This document shows, piece by piece, positions 19,576 through 57,501 of a stretch of 64,000 nucleotides of DNA; the stretch's first letter is position 1; every line of letters begins with the position of its first letter. This DNA is from Candidatus Aphodosoma sp. (GTDB lineage: Bacteria > Bacteroidota > Bacteroidia > Bacteroidales > Paludibacteraceae): contig JAZOUT010000087.1 of the NCBI GenBank assembly GCA_045658305.1, positions 1,046 to 65,045 on the forward strand, in the 5' to 3' direction. A program made the translations under genes and the position numbers. Under the pieces are notes generated by a model. It worked only from the letters and a program-made list of their open reading frames with translations, made no database searches and was not told the origin of the DNA.

Positions 19576-19623
19576 AGATATATAGATTTATTTGTTAATA
19601 AATAAACAAAACAATTCACCTTG

Positions 19624-19631
19624 CAAATTTA
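19624..19631 (-). promoter_or_regulatory. -7 promoter motif TAAATTTG for 9019..19575
   Basis: The rc of caaattta matches TAnnTTTG, 49 nt upstream of the ATG at 19575. Confidence 0.55.
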
Positions 19632-19661
19632 ATAAAAATACTCGAAAATTACAAATATCAA

Positions 19662-19696
19662 CAAAAAGAGGTTAACTATCTATAAGCTAACCTCTT
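19662..19696 (-). terminator. Rho-independent terminator of ileS
   Basis: Stem agaggtta pairs with taacctct. A T-run follows on the minus strand (plus-strand aaaaa at 19663-19667). Confidence 0.7.
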
Positions 19697-19718
19697 AAAA
19701 TACCACAAGTAATATTTA

Positions 19719-23147: not shown

Positions 23148-23241
23148 ATCTTATCAGTAATAAGCGCAAGTAGTAAATCACAAGACTTACTCGCTATGCT
23201 CGTTTTATTTTAATCAAAATACAATAATCCCAAATAAAGCG

Positions 23242-23249
23242 CAAAGGTA
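23242..23249 (-). promoter_or_regulatory. -7 promoter motif TACCTTTG upstream of ileS
   Basis: The rc of caaaggta matches TAnnTTTG, about 95 nt upstream of the ATG at 23147. Confidence 0.5.
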
Positions 23250-23273
23250 CAAAAAAAAATTAAAACTTCAAAC

Positions 23274-23301
23274 AAAAAGAGACGCAAAATATTGCGTCTC
23301 T
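23274..23301 (-). terminator. Rho-independent terminator of the acyl-CoA ligase gene (TAGAGRYGCAA-family hairpin)
   Basis: Stem agagacgcaa (23278-87) pairs with ttgcgtctct (23292-301), loop aata, with a T-run on the minus strand. Confidence 0.8.
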
Positions 23302-23326
23302 ACATATTATATAATACAAAACTACC

Positions 23327-25228
23327 TTATTTCAATGCATCAAGGTTTTGTTGGTTTTGAGATTGTTTACCTTCTGCGGTGTACATATAATCGATACGCT
23401 CAGCATAGGCTTTCTCAATTTTACCACGTACCATCTTCATTGTGCTGTTGATCATTTGGTTTTGTTCAGTAAATGGCTCTGCCAATACAGCAAAAGCACT
23501 AGGAAGCCAACGTTCTGGGAACATACCTTCAAATTCACCACCTTTCTTATATTTAGCCAATTCTTCTTCAAGTTTCTTAACTGTTGCTTTGCGACCTTCT
23601 TCAGAATCAAGAGTAAGATTGAGATAAGAAAGTTTACGTTTAAGAGCTTCACGATTAGGAACAATCAAAGCAGTTGTGAAAGGTGATTGGTTATTATAGA
23701 GCATCACTTGATCAATATATTTAGATTTTTCAACCAATGCTTCTTCGATACCTTCTGGGCTATATTTTTCGCCATCGCTTGAGATAAGGAGAGATTTGAA
23801 ACGACCTTTCACATAGAGAAGACCCTCTTTAGTCATATAACCAAGGTCGCCAGTATAGAGATAACCATCACGAACAGTTTCGGCAGTGGCTTCAGGGTTT
23901 TTCCAATAGCCTTTCATGACGTTTTCGCCTTTGACTACGATTTCGCCCATCTCGCCAAGAGGAAGTTCTTTGCCATCACTATCGCAGATTTTGAGTTCGA
24001 TAGGCTTAACGAGTTTACCACTTGAGCCAAAGCGGTAGAGGTCAGGACCATTAGACGAGAGAACAGGGGTAGCCTCAGAGAGACCGTAGCCTTGGAACAT
24101 AGGGATGCCGACACCGACATAGAACTTTTGGAGGTCTTTATCGAGAAGGGCACCGCCACCGATGAAGAAACGGAGTTCGCCACCGAAATTGTCGCGGACC
24201 TTAGAGAATATAAGTTTGTCGAAAAGAGCTACAAGGGGATAGAGCAAGAGACGAAGACCTTTGCTGTCGAGATTGCTGTCGCCAAAATAGATTTGACGGA
24301 GACGAAGTCCGAAGTTGAATAGGCTGACAGTGAAATTGCCTTTGGCGCGGATTGCTTGCTCAATGTTCTTTTTGAACGTTTTGGCAAGAGCAGGCACAGA
24401 GAGAATGAAGTGAGGGCGCACCTCTTTAATATTAAGAGGTATGTTTTTGAGCGTTTCGAGCGGAGTGCGACCTACTTGCACGGTAGCCACAGATGCACCC
24501 TTAGACATCATAATATAGAAGCCTACGACGTGAGCGAAACACTGGTCGAGAGGCAGAATGATGAGCGTGCGCCAAGTTTCGTCGATATTGACAAGCGTGC
24601 AAGCTTGCTCGACGTTGGCTGTGTAGTTGCGGTGAGTGAGCACCACACCTTTAGGGTCGGCAGTTGTGCCTGAAGTATAGGTGATTGTGGCAATATCGTC
24701 GTTTTGGAGCGATTTGCCCACGGCGAGGAATTCCTCAAGAGAGTGAGTGTTCATAAACTCATCGCCGAGAGTCATCACGCGGCTGTAAGAGACTTCGCGC
24801 TCTTCGTAGTCTTGAATATCGTCGAGAACGATAATGTATTTGACATTAGGGAGTTGGTCTTTGATAGCGCGGACTTTTTTGAGTTGAGTGCGCGACACCA
24901 TAATATATTTCACGTCACCATGTACGAGACGGAAAAGGAGGTCGTTGGACTCTTCGAGCTTGATAGACAAAGGCACATTCATCGCACCAGCATAGAACAT
25001 AGCCAACTCGCCAATAATCCATGAGTTGCGACCCTCGCTAAGAAGCGCCATGCTGTCGCCTTTTTTCACACCAATAGCCTGAAGACCAGCACCAAGACGA
25101 TACACTAAAGTTTTTACTTCGGCATAAGTAGTAGGCTCGAATTTGTTAGATGTTTTTTCGAGCAAAAATGTATTGTTAGGGTATAAACGTACCGATTCCT
25201 CGAATAAGTCGACAAGTGTTTTTTTCAT
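23327..25228 (-). CDS. Long-chain-fatty-acid--CoA ligase / AMP-dependent synthetase (633 aa)
   Basis: AMP-binding signature ITYTSGTTADPKGVVLTHRN, plus later GYGLSE and YTGDLGY...GRFKSL motifs of the ANL superfamily. Confidence 0.9.
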   Translation of the reverse strand: MKKTLVDLFEESVRLYPNNTFLLEKTSNKFEPTTYAEVKTLVYRLGAGLQAIGVKKGDSMALLSEGRNSWIIGELAMFYAGAMNVPLSIKLEESNDLLFRLVHGDVKYIMVSRTQLKKVRAIKDQLPNVKYIIVLDDIQDYEEREVSYSRVMTLGDEFMNTHSLEEFLAVGKSLQNDDIATITYTSGTTADPKGVVLTHRNYTANVEQACTLVNIDETWRTLIILPLDQCFAHVVGFYIMMSKGASVATVQVGRTPLETLKNIPLNIKEVRPHFILSVPALAKTFKKNIEQAIRAKGNFTVSLFNFGLRLRQIYFGDSNLDSKGLRLLLYPLVALFDKLIFSKVRDNFGGELRFFIGGGALLDKDLQKFYVGVGIPMFQGYGLSEATPVLSSNGPDLYRFGSSGKLVKPIELKICDSDGKELPLGEMGEIVVKGENVMKGYWKNPEATAETVRDGYLYTGDLGYMTKEGLLYVKGRFKSLLISSDGEKYSPEGIEEALVEKSKYIDQVMLYNNQSPFTTALIVPNREALKRKLSYLNLTLDSEEGRKATVKKLEEELAKYKKGGEFEGMFPERWLPSAFAVLAEPFTEQNQMINSTMKMVRGKIEKAYAERIDYMYTAEGKQSQNQQNLDALK

Positions 25229-25303
25229 AAAATTCTAAGTTTTAAGCATTCGATAATAAAATAAAAACTCACCATTTTATCGAAAATAGTTGATAATAAT
25301 GTG

Positions 25304-25311
25304 CAAAGTTA
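25304..25311 (-). promoter_or_regulatory. -7 promoter motif TAACTTTG for the acyl-CoA ligase gene
   Basis: The rc of caaagtta, 76 nt upstream of the ATG at 25228. Confidence 0.55.
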
Positions 25312-25379
25312 CTAAAAAATATTAAATGTTGTATAAAAATCATATAAAAATTTAATAGATGGGTGGTAGGATGGTGCGT

Positions 25380-25456
25380 GCAGTATGATTTATAGTATAT
25401 TTATCCTATATTTATGGTATATTTATCCTATATTTATAGTATATTTATGGTATGTT
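25380..25456 (+). repeat. 11-bp tandem array B (6 units plus 1 degenerate)
   Basis: (gcagtatgatt) tatagtatatt tatcctatatt tatggtatatt tatcctatatt tatagtatatt tatggtatgtt. Confidence 0.9.
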
Positions 25457-25460
25457 GTGG

Positions 25461-25527
25461 GTAGGGAATAAAGAGCAGAGAGTAGGGAGCAAGGAATACG
25501 GAAAAAAGAATAAGGAAAAGGGAGGAG
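25461..25527 (+). repeat. Purine-rich heptamer array directly following array B (9 units)
   Basis: gtaggga ataaaga gcagaga gtaggga gcaagga atacgga aaaaaga ataagga aaaggga, phased every 7 nt. Confidence 0.75.
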
Positions 25528-25550: not shown

Positions 25551-25558
25551 TAACTTTG
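25551..25558 (+). promoter_or_regulatory. -7 promoter motif TAACTTTG upstream of the His/Cys-rich protein operon
   Basis: Exact TAACTTTG. It is only 5 nt from the GTG at 25563, which implies a leaderless or near-leaderless mRNA, or a different true start. Confidence 0.45.
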
Positions 25559-25562: not shown

Positions 25563-26045
25563 GTGAAGAAGTATGTTTTTCAAATAGTTAGTCTTTGTTT
25601 AGCAATGTTCATTGCGTATATTGGTGGTGGATTGAATATCTATCACTATTGTTGCGATGCTTGCGAAAAACATGGACACGATATATTTCAGACTATATCG
25701 TGCGAAGAGGTGCATGCAGAGCATCATTGCACAGAGGATGATTGCCACCATGAGCATCATAATCACACTCGTATTATAGAAAATAGAGATGATTTGTGCA
25801 CTCATTTGATGGCAAATTCGGCTCACTGCGATGTGCATCATGTGGAAGCACCTTATTTTTCACAATCTAATCCTTTGAAAGTGAACTTTGTGTCACCATT
25901 GATTGCGATACACCCTATATCAATGCACAATGCACAATGCATAATGCACAATATTGAGTGCAAGATACAAAGTGAGGCTATTCCTTTAGTCCAAATTCTC
26001 ACAGGACGAGCCATAATTGTGCGAAAATCTGCGTATTTGATTTAG
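25563..26045 (+). CDS. Small N-terminally membrane-anchored His/Cys-rich protein (160 aa), putative metal-binding. Reminiscent of the Bacteroidota HYC_CC_PP-type small proteins found next to TonB-dependent receptors (from memory, unverified).
   Basis: GTG start, one TM helix (VFQIVSLCLAMFIAYIGGG), then IYHYCCDACEKHGHD...HAEHHCTEDDCHHEHHNH. First gene of a same-strand cluster with a TBDR and an HMA protein. Start codon uncertain. Confidence 0.7.
   Translation: MKKYVFQIVSLCLAMFIAYIGGGLNIYHYCCDACEKHGHDIFQTISCEEVHAEHHCTEDDCHHEHHNHTRIIENRDDLCTHLMANSAHCDVHHVEAPYFSQSNPLKVNFVSPLIAIHPISMHNAQCIMHNIECKIQSEAIPLVQILTGRAIIVRKSAYLI
25921..25952 (+). repeat. Heptamer array (AATGCAC x4.5) in frame inside the His/Cys-rich protein CDS
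   Basis: c aatgcac aatgcac aatgcat aatgcac aat, translated as SMHNAQCIMHN. Confidence 0.9.
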
Positions 26046-26149: not shown

Positions 26150-28540
26150 ATGAAAAAAATAATAATGATTGTATTGTGCGTGATGCATTGTGCATTGTGC
26201 ATTAACTTGAAAGCTCAAGAGTCGACTGGAGGCACACTTTCGGGTAGCGTGATTGATGAGAACGGCGAACCAGTAATTGGAGCTGAGATATTTTGGTTAA
26301 ACTCGACTATCGGTGCGGTTACGGATATTGATGGCAATTTTACTATTCCAATGACTGTGGATAGCCACCACTTGATTTTTAATTATTTGTCGTACAAAGC
26401 TGATACAGTAGATATTACTAAGGCTTCGATGCCTCTTGTTGTGCAGATGAGCGAAGATACAAAAGAGTTGCAAGAAGTAACAGTTGCAGCACGTGGAGCA
26501 AGTACGATTGCGAGCCGCGTGAGCGCATTGCAAACTACTAAAATCACTGGTGCAGAGTTGTGTAAAGCGGCTTGTTGCAACTTGTCGGAGTCGTTCGAAA
26601 CTAATGCCTCAGTGGACGTAGCGTATGCTGATGCTGCTACTGGCGCAAAAACAATTAAATTACTCGGTTTGTCAGGCACATACGTTCAGTTGTTGACCGA
26701 AAACACTCCAGGAGTGCGTGGTTTGGCTCAAAACTATGGTATGGAATATATCCCTGGTGCTTGGATGGAGAGCATCCAGGTATCGAAAGGTACTTCGTCT
26801 GTTATAAATGGTTATGAGGCCACTACAGGTCAAATCAATGTTGAATACTTGAAACCTCAAACCCAAGACCCTATTGCGTTGAATGGTATGGTGAGCACAT
26901 CGCTTCGCGCTGAGTTGAACGCTACTGGCGGTTGGGATATCAACGAAAAATGGAGCACTGGCGTGTTGGCTCACTACAAAAATGAGAGTATGGAACACGA
27001 CACAAATGGCGACGGATTTATGGATTTGCCAAAAGGTCAACAAGCCAATTTGTTGAATCGTTGGTATATGAAAGATGGTGCATATACAGGTCAATACCTC
27101 GTGCGAGGCTTGTATGACGAGCGCAATGGCGGTCAGACAATGAAATATATTGACGAAAATGGCATTGCTGACCCATATAAAATTGGCATTCGCACATGGC
27201 GCATGGATGCGTTTATGAAACAGGGCTATGTGTTTGATGAAGCAAAAGGTACAAGTATCGGGATTATTGCAAGTGGTTCGTACCACAATCAACACAACGT
27301 ATATGGTCATCGCGTGTATGATGGCGTACAAGGCAACTTCTATTTGAATGCTATGTTCCAAACATATTTTGATGAAACTGACAAACACAAAATCACTGCG
27401 GGTTTGAGCCTCAATTATGATAACTATAAAGAAGGGATGATATCAGACAAGGCGGAGTTTATACTATCATACGATAATAATCCGATGGGAGATTCACCAG
27501 ATGCACCTGCTGGATTACCATTAGGTGATTACACTAAACTATTAGATATGACTCGCGATGAATGGACTCCGGGTGTATTTGCAGAATACTCATTGAAAGT
27601 AGATGAAAAATTGTCGCTTTTGGCAGGTGTTCGTGGCGATTATAGCACACAGTATGGATTCTTTGTAACACCACGTTTCAACGTGCGCTACTCGCCATGG
27701 GAATGGTGGAACTTGCGCGGTTCGGTGGGTATGGGCTATCGCTCGCCTAACTTGTTGAGCGACCACGCTTCAGTGTTACCTTCGTCGAGAACAATAGCAA
27801 TTGAAAGCGATGTATTAAAACAAGAACGTGCAGTAAATGCAGGTGCAAGCACTACGTTCTATATTCCTATTGCGGGTCGCGAATTGCAAATTACGGCAGA
27901 CTACTACTACACTCATTTCTTGGAATGTATGGTTGTAGATATGGACTCTGACCCATATACTGTTATATTCTCTAACCTCACAGAGGAGGGCGTAGAAGGA
28001 GGCAAAAAACCTCGCTCGTATGCAGGCAACTTCCAAGTAGAGGCATCGATGGAGGTGTTGAAAGGTTGGACTATGACACTCGCCTACCGTATGTCGGACG
28101 TAAAAAGTACAATCAATGGTGAATTACGCGAAAAACCTCTTACAAACCGCTATAAAGCACTCATCACAACTTCGTATATGACACCACTAAAACACTGGCA
28201 ATTCGACGTTACAGCACAATTTAATGGTGGTGGTCGTATGCCTGATAATTTTTATAAAGGCAATGAATCACTTCGTCCATCATGGACTATCGACCGTGGC
28301 AATGGTCAATATGATTTTCCTTGGCATGCGCAGTTGATGGCTCAAGTAACTCGTTATTTCCGCACATGGAGTATCTATGTCGGAGGCGAGAATATCACTA
28401 ACTTTACACAAGATACACCTATTATTGGCGCCGGTGACCCATACGGACAAAACTTTGATGCATCAATGGCTTGGGGACCTATCCATGGATGGAAAGTGTA
28501 TGCAGGCTTCCGTTGGGCTTTGAACCGTAAGGAAAAATAA
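26150..28540 (+). CDS. TonB-dependent receptor with N-terminal carboxypeptidase-regulatory-like domain (796 aa)
   Basis: Signal peptide; GSVIDENGEPVIGAEIFW...TDIDGNFTI (CarbopepD_reg-like); plug-like ESFETNASVDVAYADAATGAKTIKLLGL; long barrel ending in an aromatic-rich strand (YAGFRWAL). Confidence 0.88.
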   Translation: MKKIIMIVLCVMHCALCINLKAQESTGGTLSGSVIDENGEPVIGAEIFWLNSTIGAVTDIDGNFTIPMTVDSHHLIFNYLSYKADTVDITKASMPLVVQMSEDTKELQEVTVAARGASTIASRVSALQTTKITGAELCKAACCNLSESFETNASVDVAYADAATGAKTIKLLGLSGTYVQLLTENTPGVRGLAQNYGMEYIPGAWMESIQVSKGTSSVINGYEATTGQINVEYLKPQTQDPIALNGMVSTSLRAELNATGGWDINEKWSTGVLAHYKNESMEHDTNGDGFMDLPKGQQANLLNRWYMKDGAYTGQYLVRGLYDERNGGQTMKYIDENGIADPYKIGIRTWRMDAFMKQGYVFDEAKGTSIGIIASGSYHNQHNVYGHRVYDGVQGNFYLNAMFQTYFDETDKHKITAGLSLNYDNYKEGMISDKAEFILSYDNNPMGDSPDAPAGLPLGDYTKLLDMTRDEWTPGVFAEYSLKVDEKLSLLAGVRGDYSTQYGFFVTPRFNVRYSPWEWWNLRGSVGMGYRSPNLLSDHASVLPSSRTIAIESDVLKQERAVNAGASTTFYIPIAGRELQITADYYYTHFLECMVVDMDSDPYTVIFSNLTEEGVEGGKKPRSYAGNFQVEASMEVLKGWTMTLAYRMSDVKSTINGELREKPLTNRYKALITTSYMTPLKHWQFDVTAQFNGGGRMPDNFYKGNESLRPSWTIDRGNGQYDFPWHAQLMAQVTRYFRTWSIYVGGENITNFTQDTPIIGAGDPYGQNFDASMAWGPIHGWKVYAGFRWALNRKEK
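26165..26202 (+). repeat. Heptamer array (ATTGTGC family, opposite orientation) inside the TBDR signal-peptide coding region
   Basis: gattgt attgtgc gtgatgc attgtgc attgtgc att, translated as IVLCVMHCALCIN. Confidence 0.8.
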
Positions 28541-28643: not shown

Positions 28644-29012
28644 ATGAAAAAAGTATTTCTTACACTTGCTCTTGCAGCAGGTATTTCGGTAGCCGTAATG
28701 GCAGAAAAACAGACAGTGCGCCTTTATGTTCCTGAAATGGAATGTGACAATTGTAAAGGTAAAGTAGAAAATGTATTGGCTTATGAAAAAGGAGTAAAAA
28801 AACTTAATTTCGATGTAGCTCACCGCATCGTAACAATCGTATTCGAAGACAAACGCACTAACGTAGAAAAACTTCAAGCAGCTTTAATGAAATATATTAA
28901 ATATGAATCAAAAGAGTTGAAAGAAGGCGACCACGTAGAGTGCAACCACGAACACCATCATGGACACGACCACGGTCATGGACATAATCACGACCACGGA
29001 CATAAACACTAA
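28644..29012 (+). CDS. Secreted heavy-metal-associated (HMA) domain protein with His-rich C-terminal tail (122 aa)
   Basis: Signal peptide MKKVFLTLALAAGISVAVMA; HMA CxxC motif MECDNCKGKVENVL; tail HEHHHGHDHGHGHNHDHGHKH. Confidence 0.88.
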   Translation: MKKVFLTLALAAGISVAVMAEKQTVRLYVPEMECDNCKGKVENVLAYEKGVKKLNFDVAHRIVTIVFEDKRTNVEKLQAALMKYIKYESKELKEGDHVECNHEHHHGHDHGHGHNHDHGHKH

Positions 29013-29084: not shown

Positions 29085-32000
29085 TTATTGTACGAACACT
29101 TTAGCTACACCTACAGCAGTTCTTACCAAATAAACACCTGCTGGCAAACCAACTACATTCATACGATTTTCACCTCGCATTACCAACTGTCCGTTTATAT
29201 TGAAAATGTACATATCTCCTTCTGCCACCAAATCATCACCTTCGAACCAAACTACCATCTGCGAATTATCTACAATATTTTCCACATTATCTGCCTCTGG
29301 CTCTACTACCTCTTCAAAAGTCTCAAACCACAAACGTATATCGTTCGCTTCTTCCATTACCCATGGAGAATCAATATTTTCACCAAATACAAAACCATGC
29401 TCTACTAACCATTCTGTAGTCATCAATGAGCGTGCCATTGTAGCACCTTCTGTAGTTGTATCATTCAACTCTATTGTCGTATCAATTGCCGCCAAATCTG
29501 ACACTACATAATTATTTTTCAAGCATTTTTCAGGATCATTATAAATTTTTCCTCCTGAATCTAAATTATCCCAATCATATTCAAAACTATCTCCATTTGA
29601 ATAACCGACTATACGATGCGCATACAATTCTACATCAATAGGCACTTTTATATCTTCGATAGCCACAATATTGTTAGCCACCAAAGCATATACCGAATCA
29701 GATAATGTACTACCCATAGCACCTATTACACCCCCTACTTTTACAACATTTGCATTATCACTCAATTCCATAGTGCCTTCTACATAGCAATTCAATACAT
29801 ACGAACGGTCGCTTGTTCCGACAATACCACCAGCAGTTCCTTTAGTATAAATATCTGCTGTAACATGGCAATTATTAATCACATCATCAGCACCAGACAC
29901 AGATACAATACCACCGGCTTCTATACCTGCCTCAATATTTCCATCAAAAGCACAAGCAGAAATCTTAGTCGATGTTGCTATTTTACCTGCAATACCGCCG
30001 ACACTTTCTGCTATTGGAGCATAAATATTAGCATACGACATAGAACAACCCTCTATATTCGCATACAATGAAACATCCCCAACAATACCACCCAACACAC
30101 CATTAAAACCATCCAATCCAACAATATACGGACATACGACATGCACATTACTGATTCTACAACCATAACCCGCACCTGACTCAGCAAAGGTACCCACCAC
30201 CTCATTAGCCAAAATACCTATACCTATAGCATCAGTAAACATCGAAGCCGACAATACAGAATTACGCAAAACAATATTTTCCACTACTGCCGAATCACGC
30301 AAAGAACGGAACAATCCACAATCATCCAACACAAGATTTCTAATCTCAAAATTACCACCATCCAATTTACCCGTAAACTCACCAACAACACCACCAAATA
30401 CAGCATTCATAAAGTCAATATCATTAACTACCTTATAATAAGCATCAAGATCATTATCTATTTTAGTAAAATCATAGGCACATGCTATTTCATAAGGATT
30501 TTCAGCTGTACCCTCTCCCTTCATATCTGCAACATTCAAAGGCAACTCTGTATATTGAAGCATAATTGTCCTTCCGTCACTGTAAGGGCACATCAATAAT
30601 GGTTTTATATGCGTATTCAACAAACAAATCGAACCCAAATCCCCTCCTTTTGTAGCATCAGAACCAAGCTCAAGCAACATTTCACCATTTGTACTACAAA
30701 TAGCCAAAACCTTATCTTTCGCATCCGAATTTTTACGAGTTTTAGTCAACAGCACCATATACTCTCTCTCATCATCGCTATTAAACAAATGAGGATTCAA
30801 TGCCTCTGTCGTAATATTAAACATCGCATTCTCAACTCCCTTACCCAAATTCAACACATCATAACGATCAAACGAACCATCTTTATCAAACCAAGCTATT
30901 CTATGTTGAGCCGAACCATCTTTCGTTCCCTCACCTTGCAACAAAGCAACAGCATACTGATACGAAGTCCCCTTTCCATAACGGTCAATTGAAGACGACA
31001 ATACCACCTCATCTTTTGTCACTACAGGCAACTCCGCCACCACATCGCATGCCGGAAAATCCACAAACGTAAACACTCCATACTCTCCCTCTTCTCTCGC
31101 AAACATCCATTGGTCTGAGTGCCCAACAATCGAACCCATCATCCTACTACTTATCACATTATTCGCAATATCTTTCAATTTATTACCCTCCACATCATAC
31201 AATTTATACGACGTAACATAACTATCCGAACTTGTTTGATAATTCTTTTCAGTAATAATATAGGCAGGTGCATCACCTCCATTATAATTAACAAACACAT
31301 CACCCGACATATTCAAACTACCCAAATGTGGAAACGAATACAAATATTCAAGACTCAATTCCACAGGAATCTTAGTCTCATACTTAAGCCCAAATTTATC
31401 ATCATAATACTTAACAACCAAACTATTCCCCTCATTAACAATCATATCCTGATTCACATCTTCTGGAATTGTGAAATAAGGCTTTTCATATTGTACCAAC
31501 ACATAATTAGCCTTACCCCCATTGTTCACCATCAAAATTGGCGAAGGCTCCTCGCCCGACGACGAAATATATTTATAATCCACCGTAAACGTATGTTTCT
31601 TCTCTGCCTTATAATCCGAAAAATAAGTCGCCTTTGTATACACATCATAATGATACAACAAACTATTATCATCGCCCCTCTCTTCTCTTTGAAACACCAT
31701 TGTGTACGCCTCGCTATACGAATTCACCGACATATTCTCTGCCATATGAAACGTCCCCTCTATATCATACAACCTCGTAGCCTCACCATCTGTCAACGAA
31801 TATATATAATGCAAATACTTACCCTTATAATCCAACGTATTAGCATACACAAACACCATCACCTCATAATTATTATCCTGATTGAAGAACTTTTTAGTCA
31901 AATAAGGCTGCACATTCACCATTCTCACACCAGTCGCACCCTCCACATTCAAACTATCCGCAATCGCACTAACCAACCTATTCTCCCCATCATAAATCTT

Positions 32001-32195
32001 CACTTCCATATAGGTATAATACCCATTCTCCTCCTCAAACGAAGTAGTATACACCCAGTCCAAACCATCAGGACCATTCAAAAAACCATAGCCCATAGCC
32101 GGACCAATCGTTATCGTTTGCAACTCAGCAGACACACCGCCCACCACAGCAAACATTGCCACAACAGCAACAAATAAACGTAGAAATCTTTTCAT
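29085..32195 (-). CDS. T9SS-secreted protein (1,036 aa) with GLUG-motif beta-helix region and T9SS C-terminal domain
   Basis: Signal peptide MKRFLRLFVAVVAMFAVVGGVSA. Repeated GG[IV][IV]G motifs (VGGIAGKI, AGGIVSV, AGGIVGT, VGGVIGAM), preceded by GTAENPYEI...DIDF...F.GKLDGGNFEIRNL, as in GLUG-domain proteins. C-terminus AGVYLVRTAVGVAKVFVQ. Confidence 0.85.
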   Translation of the reverse strand: MKRFLRLFVAVVAMFAVVGGVSAELQTITIGPAMGYGFLNGPDGLDWVYTTSFEEENGYYTYMEVKIYDGENRLVSAIADSLNVEGATGVRMVNVQPYLTKKFFNQDNNYEVMVFVYANTLDYKGKYLHYIYSLTDGEATRLYDIEGTFHMAENMSVNSYSEAYTMVFQREERGDDNSLLYHYDVYTKATYFSDYKAEKKHTFTVDYKYISSSGEEPSPILMVNNGGKANYVLVQYEKPYFTIPEDVNQDMIVNEGNSLVVKYYDDKFGLKYETKIPVELSLEYLYSFPHLGSLNMSGDVFVNYNGGDAPAYIITEKNYQTSSDSYVTSYKLYDVEGNKLKDIANNVISSRMMGSIVGHSDQWMFAREEGEYGVFTFVDFPACDVVAELPVVTKDEVVLSSSIDRYGKGTSYQYAVALLQGEGTKDGSAQHRIAWFDKDGSFDRYDVLNLGKGVENAMFNITTEALNPHLFNSDDEREYMVLLTKTRKNSDAKDKVLAICSTNGEMLLELGSDATKGGDLGSICLLNTHIKPLLMCPYSDGRTIMLQYTELPLNVADMKGEGTAENPYEIACAYDFTKIDNDLDAYYKVVNDIDFMNAVFGGVVGEFTGKLDGGNFEIRNLVLDDCGLFRSLRDSAVVENIVLRNSVLSASMFTDAIGIGILANEVVGTFAESGAGYGCRISNVHVVCPYIVGLDGFNGVLGGIVGDVSLYANIEGCSMSYANIYAPIAESVGGIAGKIATSTKISACAFDGNIEAGIEAGGIVSVSGADDVINNCHVTADIYTKGTAGGIVGTSDRSYVLNCYVEGTMELSDNANVVKVGGVIGAMGSTLSDSVYALVANNIVAIEDIKVPIDVELYAHRIVGYSNGDSFEYDWDNLDSGGKIYNDPEKCLKNNYVVSDLAAIDTTIELNDTTTEGATMARSLMTTEWLVEHGFVFGENIDSPWVMEEANDIRLWFETFEEVVEPEADNVENIVDNSQMVVWFEGDDLVAEGDMYIFNINGQLVMRGENRMNVVGLPAGVYLVRTAVGVAKVFVQ

Positions 32196-32230: not shown

Positions 32231-32238
32231 CAAAGTTA
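32231..32238 (-). promoter_or_regulatory. -7 promoter motif TAACTTTG for 29085..32195
   Basis: The rc of caaagtta, 36 nt upstream of the ATG at 32195. Confidence 0.6.
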
Positions 32239-32404: not shown

Positions 32405-32444
32405 CCAGACAAGCGCAGCGTTCCAGAATCTCTGGAATATCCGC
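32405..32444 (-). repeat. 40-nt conserved hairpin module (copy 1). About 37/40 identical to 62387..62426 when reverse-complemented.
   Basis: The rc reads gcggatattccagagattctggaacgctgcgcttgtctgg, against gcggatagtccagatattctggaacgcttcgcttgtctgg at 62387. It contains the hairpin ttccaga-N3-tctggaa. Confidence 0.8.
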
Positions 32445-32469: not shown

Positions 32470-32518
32470 CTTCCCTACTCCCTGCACCCTATTCCCTGCT
32501 CCTTATCAACTCCCATAC
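32470..32518 (-). repeat. Heptamer array (purine-rich on the minus/sense strand) adjoining array C
   Basis: Plus strand: cttccct actccct gcaccct attccct gctcctt atcaact cccatac. The rc gives GGGAnnn-type units. Confidence 0.65.
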
Positions 32519-32530
32519 CTCACCCATACT

Positions 32531-32598
32531 ACAACATACAATAAATATACTATAAATATAGGATAAATATATCATAAATATACTATAAACATACCATA
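32531..32598 (-). repeat. 11-bp tandem array C (6 units, minus orientation)
   Basis: The rc reads tatggtatgtt tatagtatatt tatgatatatt tatcctatatt tatagtatatt tattgtatgtt gt. Confidence 0.9.
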
Positions 32599-32662
32599 AC
32601 CCTATCCTCTCCCTCCCCTCACCCACCCCAATCACAAAAATCCACACACACCAACACACAAC

Positions 32663-32695
32663 AAAAAAATAGAGGCGCAACACATTGCGCCTCTA
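32663..32695 (-). terminator. Rho-independent terminator of 32723..38104 (TAGAGRYGCAA family)
   Basis: Stem agaggcgcaa (32671-80) pairs with ttgcgcctct (32685-94), with a T-run on the minus strand. Confidence 0.8.
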
Positions 32696-32722
32696 TTACC
32701 ACTATATAATTCCTATCAGAAA

Positions 32723-35700
32723 TTATTTCACAAATACTTTATAAGCCACACCATTCACACGGATAATAGCAATATCAGTAAGACCATTGATAACAGTAGT
32801 ATTAGTATTAGAAACACCACCATATACGCGAAGACCGTTCACTGTATAAACTTCAATCATCACGCCAGCCTCAGTTTCTACATATACCGAACCATTGTTA
32901 GCATAAATATTAACAACAAGCTCACCATTTTCAATGTCTACTTTATTTTCAGTTTCACCTACTTTAATAGTTGCACCCTTAACAATCAATGTTTGACCTT
33001 GAGCGATAGAGTTCCAGTCGAAACGTGCTTTAGTCACATCGATAGTAGCTGCATCTTCAAATGTAGCTGCTGGAAGATTTTCAGCTTTCACATTGAACAA
33101 TTCACCAGCGAAGTTGTAATAGTCTTCTGTTAATTTAGGAGATACAGATACGTATGTTGTACCCTCTTCTTCGTATGATTCTACATCAAATGCAGTTTCT
33201 GCATCCCAATACATATAAGCATTAGTTGAAGTAGTACCTGTAAGATAATCCATAGATTGTTCTGCATAGTAAGAAGCTGTTGTATCAACAACCAACAATT
33301 TACCAGCGTATGCCATACGATTAGCAAGCACATCAAGAAGCGAAGCCTCTACTGCTTCTTCTACGAAGTCACTTGCAACACAAGCACCAACGAAGTCTGC
33401 ATTAGATTCTGAGATATCCCAACCTTCTGCATCAACACCTGTAACTTTAGACACATAAGTCAACACAGGAGCGCCATAAACTTCACCTGTAGGCAACCAT
33501 GTTTCATCATCAACTAAACACTTAAAGTCAACAGTAGCCAATAAGCCAGCAGGAAGTTTTTTACCTACTTCAATATTAAGACCTTCAATTGGTTCTGGGA
33601 AACCATTAGGATCATCAGCTGGAGCTTGAAGAACGATAACACCTGTACCATCATTGAGATAGTAGTTGTTCATTGGACCCATGTGACCAAGAGCTGTTAC
33701 TTTATCAACAACTGTTGGTTGTGAGTTGAGACGTGCAAGAAGTGATTGAGCTGAATAATCTGCATAACGAGATTTTTCCCACATACCTTGATCATAGATA
33801 GCTTTGATATTAGCGAAATCAATAGCAAAGATATCGTGAGAAATATAGTTGAGTTGTTTATTTTCTTTATAAATACCAACTGTACCTACGATAGAAACTG
33901 GAGTCATAGTACCCCAAGCAGCATCAAATTTATATTGGTTGTAGATAGAAGCTTCTTCTTCTTTATCATTAGCCACAGTAGCATTACGATTTGAAGATGT
34001 AAATGCAAGAGGTTCAGTAAATCTAACTTCATTAAGAACTACATATTCGCTAAGTTCTGCAGTTGCCAAATCAGCCACTGAAATAGCACGTGGAGCAATA
34101 GCTTCACCAGCTTTAGCAGCAGGAAGAGTTGCATCTACCATTTCTGGAAGACCATTGTAATCTTTATATTTACCTTTTACGCCTACCAAGCGGTCGCCAT
34201 TCACGTAACCTGCATTTTGATAGTCAAAGTCATAAATCAACAATGAACCTGAGTTATCGCGTACATAGATGTTTTCACCATTTTGATAAGTAACAACCAC
34301 TTCGTTAAGGATTACAACCTCATTTTCTGTATCAGCAGCAGCCAAGAAGCCTGCAATATTTTCAACAAATTTGAAGTCAGCTTCGATATTAGCCAAATCA
34401 GAAACATAAAGAGAAGGAAGATCCTCAAGAGCATAACCAATATCAAAATTACCTTTAACTGTTACCTCTTGGTTAGCGAATGCACTAAAGTTAATACCGC
34501 TGAGACGAAGTTTATTTTCACCAACTTTGATACAAGCAGAATATTCATAAACGGTTTCACCATCCCACTCATATGAAGTAGTATCAATAACCACAGTACC
34601 TGTAATAGCATAGTTTTTAGCTTGATATTCTACAGCTCCAGCACCGAAGAAACCTGTAATATCACTAACTTCTGTATAAGTAATTTCATTACCTGAATTA
34701 AGTTTTTTGATGAGAGTACCAAGTTGAACTTCTACAATATTAGGAAGAACCATCTCTCCATCAACCTCAATAGAATCCACATCTGCAGGATAATCAATAT
34801 CACCAATATGGTAGTCATAACGATACGCATTGATAGAACGACCACGAGCATAACCTTCTTTACCATAAGTAGAAGAAAGATCTTCATATGGATAATAACC
34901 ACCTTTACAGAAATAAATAGAGTCACCAGCTTGGAAATTAACACCTTCTGCTACTTCCATAGCCCAAACTGTAAGACCTGTGATTGAGCCATCAGCATTT
35001 GTTTGTTGCACATTAAGAGCAGTACCACCTTGCGAAGAGAATACACTATTAACAAGAACTGGAGATGTAAAACCAGAAACTGTATATTGTTCACCAGTCA
35101 CAGGAGCCCATTTAGCCATGTAGTCTTTCAACTCGTGGAACATGAGCACGCGATTAGAACCTGTATTATAGAAATCATAAGATTCTACTGTGAATGCTTG
35201 ACCTTGTTCTGCACTTGTGTGATATACAATACCTGACAACTTAGCATCTGCAGGAACAACTGCACCTCTAACAGCGATAGTTTTACCATCTGTTGTAGCC
35301 ATTGTATAAATACCTTCTGATATACGAGTTGTTTTAGCTACTGCAATATCAATAAGCTCACCTTCAAAGTTAGCAATATTATTCACAAGTGAATCAATTG
35401 TAATAGTCTCTTTAGAGAAACGACCACGTCCCGATACTTCAAGTGCAGTAGGAACGATACGAGCCATACAATCTGCACTTGATGGATAATATGTACCTTC
35501 CACGTTAGTTACTTTTTGACTGAGAGCAATAGAGTCAACTCCATCAAGAAGAATAGCACCTGTACCATCTTGAATAAGAAGACCACGATCTGTCAAATAA
35601 GTTGTAGTTGCTGAACCTGTAAATTTAACAGGTTTAGACGCTGTATTATTGCGGATACTAAGAATAGTTGCACCTTCTTCTTGTGAAACAGCATTTTCAA

Positions 35701-38104
35701 TAGCTGATTGGCTGATTGGCATGAAACCATAAGTAGAAGTCATCCAAGAATTATCTGCGATAGCAGTAATGTTGTTTGTTGGATAGAAAGTAAATCCACC
35801 AAGATAATCTTCAAAGTTAGCTCTTGAATAAGTAATTTTGTATGCACCTTGAATGAAATCACGGTCTTTACGAGTAGTAGAATAGATCGTTGTATCGCGC
35901 TCTACAAAATCAACACCTTCAAAACGAACAAGCTTAGCGTTGTAAGTACCAGCTGTTTTAGCTTCGAGATATTGTTGAATTGTAATCACTTCTGGAACAA
36001 GTGCATTGCCTGAATTTTTAACAGTATAAGTAGTCTCTGCACCAGCAATTTTAAGACCGTATGTGCTATATGTACCTTTGAAACCAACGATAGAGTCACC
36101 TACAACACCAGCAAATACTCGTGTCGCAACAGTATCAAGTTCAATACGCAAACCACCAGTAGCATCTTGAACATAAAGATAATATTTAGCAACATCTTCC
36201 ATTGTAGTCCAATTAGTTTCAGAGCTTTGTTGGATATATGTCAAAATAACTGGGCTTGTAAGCTCATAAGTGATACCAGAAGCTGCATTACCAGCAGCTT
36301 TCATATCTGCAATCGAGTTGAATTTTACGTTAGAAGGAACAATGTCTGACTCTTGAGTAAGGATAAGTTGAACATTAGCACCAGAGTTCATTACGTCAGT
36401 AAATGCTTTAAGACCAACGCGACCAAGCATTGCTTCTGTAATTTGGAATGTAGGAGCAATAACAAGAATTGAGTCACCTTTATCACTGAAGAACCAGTGT
36501 TGATTATCAATAAGTTTAAGTTCACCTACGTTAATTGTCATATAACGAGCTTCGTAAGAACCAGCTGAACGTTTACTTGAACCAACAAGGTATGCAAGAT
36601 CGTAAAGTGAGGTAGCTGCAGGTGTTGCATTGCCTGTACTGATAATTTCAATAGTGTTAGCTTCTCTTGGATTAGTTTCCACATAAGTACCTGTTATGAT
36701 TTCACCTGCAGTTTGATCAAAGCCAAATGCAGCCAAGAAACCTTTAACGCCTTTGATAGAGTCACCTGCTGCGTATGCTTTACCGTTTTTATCAGTAGCC
36801 GATTGTGTGCGAATCGCAGCGTAATAATAAGTACTATAACCTACTTTTTGTGTTACAAACAAAGTAGTTGCGCCACTACGTGGGTTAGAAACTACATGCG
36901 TAACAAGCATTGGATCAACAATTGCAGATGAAGTAGTAGATTTATTACCTGCACCTACAGCTGTTTTATATTCATTAATGTCAGAATAACCTGTTGCTAC
37001 TGATGTAAGAACATACAAGAATTTGTTTGTGCCTGAAGATGTAGCTTTTTCAATAAAATAACCTGTAACGGTACCCATACCAGGAATTGTTACACCATAA
37101 GGAGCAGTCAAATATACTTTTTCTCCATTATAAACTACACATTTATAAGAACTATAACCAACAGTTTCTGTTGTAGCAACAAAGTCAGCTACAGTAATAG
37201 TTTCATAAGTGAAATCAACCACTACAAACACTTCGCGAGTTGCTTGAAATACATTATAATTTTCGTCATAATACTCGTAAGTCTCAGTAGCTTTATAACC
37301 TTTAAGAGTAGTTGCTACTTTAGGAAGCTCGTTGTCACCTGAATAAGAAACACGAACTTTTTCTTCTCCAATCATAACATATTGAACTTCAGTATAGTCT
37401 TCTTTACTATATTCTGAAATAATATTAGCATTTTGAATAGTTGTATATTCGATTTCTGCTTCAATTACGTTGAACACAGTACCACGACTTTCACCGTATG
37501 GGTGAGGTCCATAGTAACCATAAAGTACTGCTTCGCCAGGAAGGTTACCATTATAATAAAGAGCAAGAGTAGTGTCAGTGCCTGCTGCTATTGCAGGATT
37601 GCCACTCTTATCACTAATGATAGCTGTTTTAGCAATTTTCACTGCTTTATACTCATAACCTTTGTAATTGGCAATAAGTTCAGCAGCTGTAGCAGTAACG
37701 TATGTAACGCCTACTGAATCGCCAAGAGTGTAAGTGAGGGCTTCATCTTCTGGATTATAAATAACCCCAGGATACTCTATTGTACCAATTGAATCACCCC
37801 ACCAGTCATATTCTACACCTTCATAATTAGCATAACCATTTACAGAAGTGATTTTTTTACCTGGAACAAGACCTTTTGCTTCCTCTCTTGCCCAATAATA
37901 ACTTTGACATTTAATAGCACCACTTGCATCTTCAATAATGATACCATCTGTGGTAAAGAAAGTAACAACTGCATTAGGAGAATTAAGAGTCACAGGCACT
38001 GATTTTCCTGTAATAGCCTTAACCTCAGCAATCGTTGAATAAGATTCGGCCATTGATATCACCGACACCAATAAAGCCATCATGAAAAGAGAAATCTTTT
38101 TCAT
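32723..38104 (-). CDS. T9SS-secreted multidomain surface protein (1,793 aa) with repeated OB-fold-like modules
   Basis: Signal peptide MKKISLFMMALLVSVISMAES. Recurrent module signature: YLYVQDATGGLRIEL, LLIQDGTGAILLDG, IYVRDNSGSLLIYDF...GDRLVGVKGKYKDYNGLPEM, YYLNDGTGVIVLQA. C-terminus IAIIRVNGVAYKVFVK. The domain assignment is inference. Confidence 0.85.
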   Translation of the reverse strand: MKKISLFMMALLVSVISMAESYSTIAEVKAITGKSVPVTLNSPNAVVTFFTTDGIIIEDASGAIKCQSYYWAREEAKGLVPGKKITSVNGYANYEGVEYDWWGDSIGTIEYPGVIYNPEDEALTYTLGDSVGVTYVTATAAELIANYKGYEYKAVKIAKTAIISDKSGNPAIAAGTDTTLALYYNGNLPGEAVLYGYYGPHPYGESRGTVFNVIEAEIEYTTIQNANIISEYSKEDYTEVQYVMIGEEKVRVSYSGDNELPKVATTLKGYKATETYEYYDENYNVFQATREVFVVVDFTYETITVADFVATTETVGYSSYKCVVYNGEKVYLTAPYGVTIPGMGTVTGYFIEKATSSGTNKFLYVLTSVATGYSDINEYKTAVGAGNKSTTSSAIVDPMLVTHVVSNPRSGATTLFVTQKVGYSTYYYAAIRTQSATDKNGKAYAAGDSIKGVKGFLAAFGFDQTAGEIITGTYVETNPREANTIEIISTGNATPAATSLYDLAYLVGSSKRSAGSYEARYMTINVGELKLIDNQHWFFSDKGDSILVIAPTFQITEAMLGRVGLKAFTDVMNSGANVQLILTQESDIVPSNVKFNSIADMKAAGNAASGITYELTSPVILTYIQQSSETNWTTMEDVAKYYLYVQDATGGLRIELDTVATRVFAGVVGDSIVGFKGTYSTYGLKIAGAETTYTVKNSGNALVPEVITIQQYLEAKTAGTYNAKLVRFEGVDFVERDTTIYSTTRKDRDFIQGAYKITYSRANFEDYLGGFTFYPTNNITAIADNSWMTSTYGFMPISQSAIENAVSQEEGATILSIRNNTASKPVKFTGSATTTYLTDRGLLIQDGTGAILLDGVDSIALSQKVTNVEGTYYPSSADCMARIVPTALEVSGRGRFSKETITIDSLVNNIANFEGELIDIAVAKTTRISEGIYTMATTDGKTIAVRGAVVPADAKLSGIVYHTSAEQGQAFTVESYDFYNTGSNRVLMFHELKDYMAKWAPVTGEQYTVSGFTSPVLVNSVFSSQGGTALNVQQTNADGSITGLTVWAMEVAEGVNFQAGDSIYFCKGGYYPYEDLSSTYGKEGYARGRSINAYRYDYHIGDIDYPADVDSIEVDGEMVLPNIVEVQLGTLIKKLNSGNEITYTEVSDITGFFGAGAVEYQAKNYAITGTVVIDTTSYEWDGETVYEYSACIKVGENKLRLSGINFSAFANQEVTVKGNFDIGYALEDLPSLYVSDLANIEADFKFVENIAGFLAAADTENEVVILNEVVVTYQNGENIYVRDNSGSLLIYDFDYQNAGYVNGDRLVGVKGKYKDYNGLPEMVDATLPAAKAGEAIAPRAISVADLATAELSEYVVLNEVRFTEPLAFTSSNRNATVANDKEEEASIYNQYKFDAAWGTMTPVSIVGTVGIYKENKQLNYISHDIFAIDFANIKAIYDQGMWEKSRYADYSAQSLLARLNSQPTVVDKVTALGHMGPMNNYYLNDGTGVIVLQAPADDPNGFPEPIEGLNIEVGKKLPAGLLATVDFKCLVDDETWLPTGEVYGAPVLTYVSKVTGVDAEGWDISESNADFVGACVASDFVEEAVEASLLDVLANRMAYAGKLLVVDTTASYYAEQSMDYLTGTTSTNAYMYWDAETAFDVESYEEEGTTYVSVSPKLTEDYYNFAGELFNVKAENLPAATFEDAATIDVTKARFDWNSIAQGQTLIVKGATIKVGETENKVDIENGELVVNIYANNGSVYVETEAGVMIEVYTVNGLRVYGGVSNTNTTVINGLTDIAIIRVNGVAYKVFVK

Positions 38105-38285
38105 AAAATGCGTGTTTTTAAGTTAATGAATAATGTTAATAATTACAATTTTGTTCTATATCTTTATTATAGTAGATAAGCTCAGTTCCATTTATTATTC
38201 GTATTTGTATAAACACAACCAAACTACACCAATATATATTTTAGTATCCTTTTTTACTATGGCACAATACCCCAAAATAAGACGA

Positions 38286-38293
38286 CAAAGGTA
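38286..38293 (-). promoter_or_regulatory. Candidate -7 motif TACCTTTG for 32723..38104
   Basis: The rc of caaaggta, about 185 nt upstream of the ATG at 38104. Confidence 0.35.
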
Positions 38294-38340
38294 AGACTTT
38301 TTTTTCAAATAACAAAATTTTTTACAAAAAAAACAAATAA

Positions 38341-57497: not shown

Positions 57498-57501
57498 TAT
57501 T

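Follow-up and report, generated by a model that had tools for sequence, protein, structure and literature searches.

The DNA analysed here, referred to as the window, comprises 64,000 nucleotides of contig JAZOUT010000087.1 of Candidatus Aphodosoma sp., with a G+C content of 38% and promoter boxes of the Bacteroidota type TAnnTTTG. In the intergenic region between an acyl-CoA synthetase gene (23327-25228, minus strand) and an open reading frame (ORF; 25563/25605-26045, plus strand), a repeat cassette, designated cassette b, is located on the plus strand at positions 25377-25477. It consists of a leader (approximately 25377-25390, including the degenerate unit GCAGTATGATT), six units of 11 bp (25391-25456) and a tail (25457-25477). 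A purine-rich, roughly heptamer-phased tract (25457-25527, plus strand; gtaggga ataaaga gcagaga gtaggga ...), which is found in a minority of the family, follows the array. The cassette is flanked by two outward-pointing -7 boxes (TAACTTTG), of which the first (25304-25311, minus strand; 79 nt from the start of the array) serves the acyl-CoA synthetase gene and the second (25551-25558, plus strand; 94 nt past the end of the array) serves the ORF. The latter promoter repeats the one at 25302-25322 in inverted form. With high confidence, cassettes of this kind represent a clade-specific, dispersed and non-coding family in the chromosomes of Candidatus Aphodosoma and related Paludibacteraceae.

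In the window, arrays with a period of 11 were called by Tandem Repeats Finder at 8787-8862 (array a), 25382-25453 (b), 32536-32599 (c), 42234-42299 (d), 50387-50451 (e) and 62274-62331 (f), with 5.4-6.9 copies and 81-87% matches. These are the six arrays that had been recognized in an earlier, sequence-only reading of this DNA, and the units TATAGTATRTT and TATCCTATATT given there were likewise found. A degenerate pattern of two units yielded 23 matches in the window, all of them within the six loci, while 0.00 were expected from 100 dinucleotide-preserving shuffles. As the size of the family, the number six is far too low, as dozens to hundreds of copies per genome occur throughout the clade. 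A scan for three consecutive units (TATNNTATRTT x3) in one genome per species (set 1) gave at least 88 loci. At least 80 of these belong to at least eight species-level metagenome-assembled genomes (MAGs) from animal guts, assigned to Candidatus Aphodosoma or to 'Paludibacteraceae bacterium', and the remainder were chance AT-rich matches in unrelated taxa. An independent scan of metagenome contigs added 87 loci (set 2), which served as the replication set. Outside the window, the family has at least 175 further copies in at least eight species of Candidatus Aphodosoma and Paludibacteraceae and in gut metagenomes; the related loci are cited below by their L numbers. One or two arrays were present per unbiased 20-kb locus and six in the 64-kb window, which suggests a density of roughly one array per 10-20 kb.

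Candidatus Aphodosoma corresponds to the GTDB genus SFVR01 of the family Paludibacteraceae, and the array-bearing organisms are known as MAGs only (PMC8035907). The window is 98.9% identical over 1.2 kb to one Aphodosoma MAG and 80-94% identical to other MAGs. No array was present in 20 kb of a more distant relative (aroQ 78% identical). All 61 matches in viral contigs, mostly of giant-virus MAGs, were unrelated homogeneous AT repeats devoid of leader, tail and the AG/CC mosaic of the units described below. Exact-protein look-ups with the AroQ and HMA-domain proteins of the window returned no record, and neither the unit sequences in the context of bacterial repeats nor repeats in Aphodosoma or Paludibacteraceae were found in the literature search. 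A search of the window and eight related loci against Rfam 15 gave nothing at the cassettes; only tRNAs and one unrelated small RNA (sRNA) were matched. The opinion that no described element of the Bacteroidota matches these arrays can be maintained, and the family is undescribed in Rfam and in the literature searched. The sRNA match is to Acido-Lenti-1 (L057, 2592-2637, minus strand; 44.7 bits, above the gathering score).

The organization of the family was derived from 88 arrays anchored at their ends. The core of a cassette consists of a G-rich leader of 12-14 nt (TG.AGATWRSKT), the 11-bp units and a G-rich tail of 21 nt (GTAGGTAGGGAGAGGTTAGGG), and the same consensus of leader and tail was obtained with the replication set. 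In set 1, and again in set 2, the information content of leader and tail is at most 1.7 bits per position and drops to background level beyond them; further outside, base composition alone is conserved. On the array strand, C makes up at most 7% within 50 nt to either side, independently of how the neighbouring genes are oriented, and this depletion over about 50 nt on each side enlarges the module to about 170 bp. Cassettes are about 100-170 bp long and intergenic; merely one of the 88 arrays lies in a called ORF, which is probably spurious. The units are arranged head-to-tail and have the consensus T-A-T-[A/C/G]-[G/C]-T-A-T-[A/G]-T-T (TATnnTATrTT). Positions 1-3, 6-8 and 10-11 are essentially invariant (set 1). 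Positions 4-5 are AG, CC or GG, with G or C in more than 90% of the units although the context is AT-rich; a purine (A or G) occupies position 9 throughout. The first unit belongs to the AG type, CC types occupy the middle of the array and the final unit ends with GTT. Five or six units are present in about 80% of the arrays (61 of 88 in set 1, 72 of 82 in set 2), within a range of 3-11.

The leader is similar to the tail in that both look like degenerate units. No terminal inverted repeats occur at the ends of the cassettes, and no conserved sequence was detected past leader and tail in either set; the flanks cannot be inverted copies of each other because both are poor in C on the same strand. 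Inverted repeats around arrays of the window are divergent promoters (b, f) or the end of an unrelated mobile element (a). A possible target-site duplication was dismissed, as matching types of leader and tail, counted by eye (about 5 of 20 versus 4 of 45), were judged not significant without a formal test. The common boundary that had been ascribed to all six arrays holds as a consensus and not as an identical sequence (GTAGTAT in a and c, GTGGGTA in b, GTAATAT in d, ATAGATT in e and ATAGTAT in f). Similarly, the heptamer-phased purine-rich DNA said to follow every array is clear at b and c, weak at d and missing at a, e and f, and it was called by Tandem Repeats Finder at c alone (32472-32502). 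In the family, a strong lag-7 tract lies downstream of only 8 of 83 arrays (mean downstream purine content 0.57), so that it is not a constant component of the cassette.

Orthologues in other species were found for arrays b, c, e and f. Among the tiles listed, at least 20 or so orthologous pairs of arrays between species are accompanied by the same conserved block with a flank identity of 70-94%. Third codon positions of the window and L037/L050 are 64-67% identical (about 0.65), which puts neutral sites close to saturation. Seven orthologous pairs are of equal length. In these, the fixed unit positions, eight per unit, agree in 335 of 336 cases (99.7%), a value that is partly circular because the arrays were detected via these fixed bases, while the three variable positions agree in 82 of 126 (65%) and the outer flanks in 265 of 595 (45%). 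The unit number of orthologues usually differs by at most one. A profile hidden Markov model built from 81 six-unit cassettes recovered exactly the six arrays of the window; it detected no degenerate relics, either there or in unbiased related loci. The eight fixed bases do not differ between species, and restriction extends to the 'variable' positions; this conservation is hard to reconcile with neutrality. A metagenome scan for copy-number polymorphism with the unique flank of array e gave no matches.

The positions of the arrays relative to genes were analysed with a simple longest-ORF gene map, which was applied to all loci. Array-bearing intergenic regions were divergent in 32, tandem in 30 and convergent in three cases, in comparison to 33, 238 and 57 array-free regions of the same contigs. 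This enrichment in divergent and depletion in convergent regions is significant (chi-square p = 4e-14) and persists if only array-free regions of at least 150 nt are considered (p = 4e-4). Over all 175 arrays, 55 lie in divergent, 31 in tandem regions anti-oriented to the genes, 26 in tandem regions co-oriented with them and six in convergent regions. With 26 co-oriented and 31 anti-oriented arrays (p = 0.6), orientation in tandem regions is random. Of random placement relative to gene starts and orientation, which the sequence-only reading had named as a possible outcome, only the part on orientation was found, in tandem regions; placement itself is non-random, being divergent-enriched and on the promoter side.

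On the leader side, a -7 box within 300 nt points outward at 60 of 88 arrays in set 1 and 55 of 68 in set 2 (median distance about 85 nt; quartiles about 66, 88 and 122 nt), and inward at 24 of 88 and 18 of 68. On the tail side, the corresponding values are 52 of 88 and 45 of 74 outward (median about 100 nt) and 6 of 88 and 5 of 74 inward. In the typical layout, 50-130 bp separate the cassette from one promoter and 50-150 bp from the other, both reading away from it. In the window, five of the six arrays do point at the start of a gene, as had been noticed, with a TAnnTTTG box between array and start codon in all five, start codon distances of 107-401 nt and downstream products that carry a signal peptide, a lipobox or a C-terminus like that of substrates of the type IX secretion system (T9SS). 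Neither the directionality nor the link to secreted proteins is supported in the family as a whole. Outward boxes are present on either side, genes adjoining the leader are served no less often than those adjoining the tail, and the orientation in tandem regions is evenly divided. Genes for proteins with signal peptides account for 44% behind array-bearing intergenic regions and for 39% behind those without an array (p = 0.26), and for 49% on the tail side versus 40% on the leader side (p = 0.22). The neighbours of arrays in the window include aroQ, an acyl-CoA synthetase gene and lplA beside genes of TonB-dependent, Omp28 and T9SS-type proteins.

The arrays themselves were considered as promoters, since the units carry TAnnTTTA (one base off the -7 consensus), but there is no TTTG at a workable spacing of 19-21 nt. 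A sigma-54-like reading of the TTGCTT leader was likewise rejected; it fits half of the leaders only, with the spacing off by one base. The coding strand also has a low C content (4-10%) in intergenic DNA upstream of window genes without an array (e.g. 19576-19718, 23148-23326 and 38105-38393).

When the 60-bp duplexes of the 64 kb are ranked by nearest-neighbour energies, beginning with the least stable, the arrays take ranks 1, 2, 3, 4, 6 and 7. Their predicted bend of 68-85 degrees per 55 bp (median 25) corresponds to the 99.2-100th percentile in the Trifonov model and the 97.8-99.9th in that of De Santis; these two wedge models place the arrays in the top 1% or so of the window, in line with the suggestion of curved upstream DNA. 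Shuffled units bend as much in 7-35% of trials, which makes the curvature largely a generic result of the 11-bp period. In a simplified model of superhelical opening, arrays c, f and e are major sites, and a, b and d lose to longer neighbouring AT tracts. The parameters for curvature and for stress-induced duplex destabilization (SIDD) do not come from a validated package, so these results are indicative only. Folding of both RNA strands of three cassettes gave z-scores between -0.84 and +1.75 and no excess of structure; the reverse-strand RNA, with -2.8 to -4.5 kcal/mol over about 131-135 nt, is almost structureless. Canonical G-quadruplex (G4) motifs follow only 10 of 83 arrays.

Arrays are evenly spaced, with no two of them less than about 6 kb apart. 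A second array occurred in only 3 of 167 array tiles (882 kb), at a distance of 6.0-7.6 kb, while 21-78 would be expected for densities between one per 10.7 kb and one per 40 kb (P <= 1.6e-6). Over-dispersion may be exaggerated by contig breaks at arrays; it is still seen if only full-length 8-kb tiles are used (P <= 7e-4). Within the window, the minimum gap between arrays of 7.0 kb was reached by 0.36% of random picks of 6 of the 15 larger intergenic regions (P = 0.004). Arrays mark points of rearrangement, and breaks of synteny and differences between strains start exactly there. Homology of the window to the 98.9%-identical MAG ends inside array c (window 32533 versus L064), and in some relatives an 8.6-kb gene cluster is located between an f-type array and aroQ (window 62196-62730 versus L089-L104 and L267/L268). 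The region upstream of the operon at 49270-50136 varies among strains that share an identical protein of 114 amino acids (window 50137-50553 versus L105-L111); strains with the identical neighbouring protein possess six or eight units and different downstream DNA.

A MITE (miniature inverted-repeat transposable element) about 170-290 bp in length with the ends GGTTCTTCGTCAGTTTAGTTGAA starts at position +18/+19 of the tail, in a single orientation, in 24 of 175 cassettes (14%). Among them are cassette a of the window, L007, L011, L012, L033, L035, L038, L039, L048, L052, L057, L058, L060, L064, L075, L077, L084, L088 and others. The element was never found on the leader side of a cassette and occurs away from arrays too; its targeting of the tail is site- and orientation-specific. 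One copy lies about 150 nt from the Acido-Lenti-1 match in L057. In the window, a MITE-type end (GGTTCTTCGTTAGTTTAATGTGAGTTCGATATA; 8885-8917, plus strand) starts 19 nt after the last unit of array a. Furthermore, cassette a is bracketed by an inverted repeat of 19 nt (TATATCGAACTGACATTAA / TTAATGTGAGTTCGATATA; 8718-8736 and 8899-8917, also 8648-8667; 95% complementary), which belongs to another repeat seen also at the start of L105, and array a may be caught between or inside MITE ends. A second element with the end TATAACCCGTTGGCGGAATTAA interrupts arrays after three units (L044, about 118-175; L070, about 2436-2490), which makes the array core an insertion target as well, and the same end precedes an eight-unit array in L107 (about 140-165). 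Inverted pairs of arrays might indicate transposon ends, but pairs in the same orientation (L044, L046) are as frequent as inverted ones (window b/c), and this reading was rejected.

Dispersed extragenic repeats are known from a few well-studied bacteria, for example repetitive extragenic palindromic sequences (REPs) with the bacterial interspersed mosaic elements (BIMEs), Correia elements and BrickBuilt, and their roles are debated. The cassettes belong among these repeat families, as an undescribed one. BIMEs serve as insertion sites of IS1397, and some of them are bound by IHF and gyrase. Like REPs and BIMEs, the cassettes are a high-copy, clade-specific extragenic repeat, possibly nucleoid-organising, and a specific insertion target (here of the MITE, 24 of 175). 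REPs, however, are palindromic, transcribed and mostly situated at 3' ends of genes, whereas the cassettes consist of direct repeats without palindromes, avoid convergent regions (3 of 65) and show no RNA structure.

The centromere parC of plasmid R1 contains ten 11-bp direct repeats around the par promoter, which are bound cooperatively by the ribbon-helix-helix protein ParR. Such type II centromeres and plasmid iterons share with the cassettes the head-to-tail 11-bp direct repeats, about five per block, on one face of the helix and with a promoter nearby; they are, however, single plasmid loci beside their cognate par or rep genes, whereas here many chromosomal copies without an adjacent cognate gene occur. 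Direct repeats are also bound by regulators of the OmpR/PhoB family, as in pho boxes, the PhoP units of Streptomyces and ArcA sites with two to five repeats at 11-bp spacing. These operators resemble the arrays in the 11-bp distance from centre to centre, in the division into a conserved and a less conserved part and in the variable number of units in phase. They are short and degenerate, overlap or abut the promoter and define a regulon, in contrast to the five or six near-perfect units described here, which have a conserved leader and tail, are located 50-130 bp from promoters and neighbour unrelated genes.

Cyanobacterial short tandemly repeated repetitive (STRR) sequences are heptamer tandem repeats. 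Abundant intergenic TAACTGA heptamer repeats of unknown function have been described, and such repeats occur in five Bacteroidetes (PMC4679880). Both resemble the purine-rich 7-bp tract after b and c and many other 7-bp arrays of the window, while the heptamer sequences differ; moreover, the tract is only an inconstant neighbour of the 11-bp cassette (8 of 83), outside its conserved core. With SIDD sites, the cassettes have in common that they are AT-rich, easily melted, predicted to be curved and part of promoter-containing intergenic DNA (PMC2211533), but SIDD sites are defined by a physical property without a shared sequence, whereas the cassettes conserve a specific repeated one.

Among described elements, BrickBuilt of Porphyromonas gingivalis comes closest; it has units of 23 nt in copy numbers of 1-22.8, leaders and tails of up to about 300 nt with terminal inverted repeats, its own bidirectional promoters and 19 copies in a single host species (PMC4596501). 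Both families occur in Bacteroidales and are dispersed and strictly intergenic, with a spacer-free head-to-tail core, a distinct conserved leader and tail, conserved and variable unit positions and, in BrickBuilt, distances of 49-591 nt from neighbouring genes (PMC4596501). The present cassettes differ in their units of 11 nt (one helical turn), of which five or six form an array, in a leader and tail of 12-21 nt without inverted ends, in dozens to hundreds of copies at orthologous sites in many species, and in promoters that lie outside the conserved part. What distinguishes the family is the combination of one-helical-turn units in five or six copies, divergent promoter regions, even spacing and survival through saturating neutral divergence.

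The base-specific constraint, the fixed and phased unit number, the retention at orthologous sites, the lack of relics and the orientation-free placement on the promoter side favour a sequence-specific function. Tentatively, and with somewhat less than even confidence, the array is regarded as a platform of several helically phased sites at which a sequence-specific protein of this clade, DNA-binding or architectural, would dock. An iteron-like platform or curved DNA, as proposed from the sequence alone, is still the best class of explanation in view of the position-specific conservation across species and a curvature in the top 1% or so. What the data demonstrate is the anatomy of the cassettes, the number, placement and spacing of the copies, their conservation across species and the constraint on individual positions; the binding of a protein and its consequence are inferred. 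One protomer would occupy each 11-bp unit, all of them on one face of the helix, and five or six protomers (or three dimers) would form a defined nucleoprotein complex on intrinsically bent and easily melted DNA. By analogy, the protein could be a winged-helix protein of the OmpR/PhoB type on direct repeats or a ribbon-helix-helix protein of the ParR type on 11-bp iterons. Such a complex might act architecturally, be it as an upstream element or insulator that back-to-back promoters have in common, or by organising topology or the nucleoid locally, and less as the classical operator of a single regulon. The loose position and orientation relative to genes point to architectural action, and most likely the cassettes are not switches for genes of secreted proteins. 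The one-turn unit, the constant unit number, the marking of promoters, the spacing and the base-specific constraint also point to a trans-acting partner and to a genome-wide role. It is conceivable, if rather doubtful, that the cassettes are the cis-elements of a novel, clade-specific system of chromosome or transcription architecture, with one protein-loaded, phased hexameric platform per 10-20 kb or so and never less than about 6 kb apart. If so, they would have been kept between back-to-back promoters under purifying selection since before the species of Aphodosoma and Paludibacteraceae split, and would work as bacterial insulators, domain boundaries or shared upstream activating sites.

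Several observations speak against a protein-loaded platform. The distance to the promoters is broad (30-250 nt), and helical phasing between promoter and array with a period of 11, examined on the tail side, was not robust (p = 0.002 in set 1, p = 0.19 in set 2). The neighbouring genes, which comprise housekeeping and surface-protein genes, form no coherent regulon; no cognate gene adjoins the arrays and no binding protein was identified. The tail tolerates an inserted MITE in 14% of the copies. Beside the circularity already mentioned, the pattern of fixed and variable positions could result from gene conversion, or from the swapping of whole units between family members with the fixed bases in common. 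Variants of leader and tail are partly genome-specific, and the modal unit number is five in two species and six in others; this fits either concerted evolution or co-evolution with a trans-acting factor. Finally, L065 possesses an array where the orthologous intergenic region of the window has none, and array f is partly decayed, with its phase lost after four units.

A rival reading requires no protein. Curved, easily unwound SIDD-like DNA, rich in TA steps and phased at 11 bp, between back-to-back promoters could absorb or relay the negative supercoiling generated by transcription, or pin the tips of plectonemes, with the G-rich leader and tail as clamps. That six of the seven least stable 60-bp windows are arrays, that their predicted bend of 68-85 degrees exceeds the median of 25 and that placement is independent of orientation would suit this model, as would the divergent enrichment and convergent depletion, which match a report on SIDD sites of E. 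coli (PMC2211533). A purely structural element, however, needs neither eight invariant bases across species nor the restriction to G/C and to purines at the 'variable' positions; 7-35% of shuffled units bend as much, and only three of six arrays (c, f, e) are major opening sites in the simplified model, with parameters for curvature and SIDD that do not come from a validated package. Protein-independent structural DNA is judged unlikely. The invariant bases and the unit number speak against the view that the cassettes are a selfish or neutral repeat, i.e. a non-autonomous element with an internal minisatellite, comparable to BrickBuilt, that has spread into tolerant intergenic DNA beside promoters, is homogenised by ectopic gene conversion and slippage and has no host function. 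Its spacing would then be due to counter-selection of deletions or inversions that arise between neighbouring copies. The large number of near-identical copies and their common internal order of units suggest descent from a master copy, and genome-specific tail variants and modal unit numbers, the variable presence at one orthologous intergenic region, breaks of synteny exactly at arrays, six or eight units among strains with an identical neighbouring protein and the targeting by other mobile elements are in line with this view. But the cassettes lack terminal inverted repeats and target-site duplications, no transposase partner was seen, the unit number is tightly held without relics, the same eight bases are fixed in all species, and convergent regions, which are usually the safest for selfish repeats, are avoided. 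Orthology of about 20 copies between species whose synonymous divergence is saturated speaks against recent spread, and a repeat without function would be an improbable explanation.

A further rival is an element that acts at the level of RNA. The reverse transcript, long, C-rich, G-poor and unstructured, might load Rho and terminate read-through or antisense transcription, and the G-rich forward transcript might form G-quadruplexes. The reverse-strand RNA folds at only -2.8 to -4.5 kcal/mol, C does not exceed 7% on the array strand within 50 nt on either side in any configuration of genes, and a gene turns its 3' end towards the array in 37 of 118 cases. On the other hand, the promoters on both sides point outward and terminator hairpins precede the cassette where the upstream gene is co-directional, so most copies are probably not transcribed. 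A canonical G4 follows only 10 of 83 arrays, and the 11-bp unit and the fixed bases would be left unexplained; an RNA element is very unlikely. Still more remote is a contingency locus, in which a change of the unit number by slipped-strand mispairing would switch neighbouring surface-protein genes. Tandem repeats near genes of surface and secreted proteins, as in the window, and the single case of six versus eight units in strains with an identical neighbouring protein would suit phase variation; yet the arrays lie 30-250 nt outside the promoter and neither in the -33/-7 spacer nor in an ORF, steps of 11 bp leave the helical face unchanged, the distribution of unit numbers is narrow with a difference of at most one in most orthologous pairs, and genes of secreted proteins are not enriched.

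For the preferred platform reading, the array offers a concrete bait for finding the partner protein, e.g. (TATAGTATATT)6, in a lineage that is uncultured and common in the animal gut. As hotspots of insertion for MITEs and insertion sequences, sites of synteny breaks and ends of contigs, the cassettes also matter for the assembly and comparison of MAGs.

The other cassettes of the window are arranged as follows. Cassette a (8775-8886, plus strand) contains a leader (8775-8788), seven 11-bp units (8789-8865) and a tail (8866-8886). It is located in a tandem intergenic region (-,-), anti-oriented to the genes, with its leader side facing the start of gene 1-8240 (minus strand) and the nearest -7 box 239 nt off. 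Cassettes c, d and e are on the minus strand and have six units each. Cassette c (32512-32612; leader 32599-32612, units 32533-32598, tail 32512-32532) lies downstream of the intrinsic terminator hairpin (32668-32697) of gene 32723-38104 and is accompanied by a G-rich heptamer tract (G3N4 x4; 32472-32502); a -7 box (TAACTTTG; 32231-32238, minus strand) 294 nt past the array serves the T9SS-type gene 29085-32195 (minus strand). Cassette d (42213-42313; leader 42300-42313, units 42234-42299, tail 42213-42233) has the terminator of lplA (42381-43358) on one side and, on the other, two -7 boxes (42115-42108 and 42060-42053) that belong to gene 38394-42005 (minus strand). Cassette e (50363-50463; leader 50450-50463, units 50384-50449, tail 50363-50383) lies between outward -7 boxes at 50515-50522 (plus strand; Omp28 gene 50554-52224) and 50301-50294 (minus strand; lipoprotein gene 49270-50136), and its orthologues in L040, L099 and L267 possess six or seven units. 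Cassette f (62262-62335, plus strand) consists of a leader (62262-62275), four intact units (62276-62319), a unit with a deletion of 1 nt and a degraded tail; it is located between outward -7 boxes at 62221-62214 (minus strand; aroQ, 61773-62195) and 62688-62695 (plus strand; DUF4831 gene 62731-63780). Six intact units are present in its orthologue L265/L266.

Between cassette and downstream promoter, loci c and f share an element of about 40 nt (GCGGATAkTCCAGAkATTCTGGAACGCTkCGCTTGTCTGG; 32405-32444, minus strand, and 62387-62426, plus strand) with the internal palindrome TTCCAGA..TCTGGAA and related copies in L012, L064, L065 and L077. A binding site of a regulator and a small family of repeats are both conceivable. 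The divergent intergenic region between polA and an [FeFe]-hydrogenase-like gene (56542-57501; 960 nt) has no TATAGTAT array, while the orthologous region of L065 contains one of nine units. It is packed with other tandem repeats, i.e. the 9-mers AACCAGTGC and CTTGCACTA, the 7-mers TTCTTAA and ACTAATA and the 11-mer AGCAACCCGCA. The adjoining DNA polymerase I gene (53560-56541, minus strand) encodes 993 amino acids in comparison to 937-944 in relatives and contains tandem-repeat insertions: repeats of 7/21 nt ('EELGIRNEELRIENGELRIENEE'; 55553-55688) within the linker that joins the 5' nuclease to the 3'-5' exonuclease, repeats of 9 and 7 nt (55310-55382) and repeats of 15 nt (54840-54899).

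A second dispersed heptamer family in the window is (GCACAAT)n, for which 18 matches, including the complement, were found versus 0.08 expected. Its sites are 25921-25952 and 46288-46313 on the plus strand and 26173-26203, 43671-43708, 46358-46371, 53491-53557 and 55351-55382 on the minus strand. Several copies lie in frame inside real genes and encode peptides like 'MHNAQCI', for example in a PNP_UDP_1 phosphorylase (amino acids 127-140), in DNA polymerase I (about amino acids 390-400), in the TonB-dependent receptor at 26150 (within its signal peptide) and at the C-terminus of the ORF 25563-26045. In addition, tandem repeats of 18 nt (CACGAACACCATCATGGA; 28947-29009) form the 3' end of a gene for a small secreted protein with a heavy-metal-associated (HMA) domain (28644-29012, plus strand), where they probably encode a His-rich tail.

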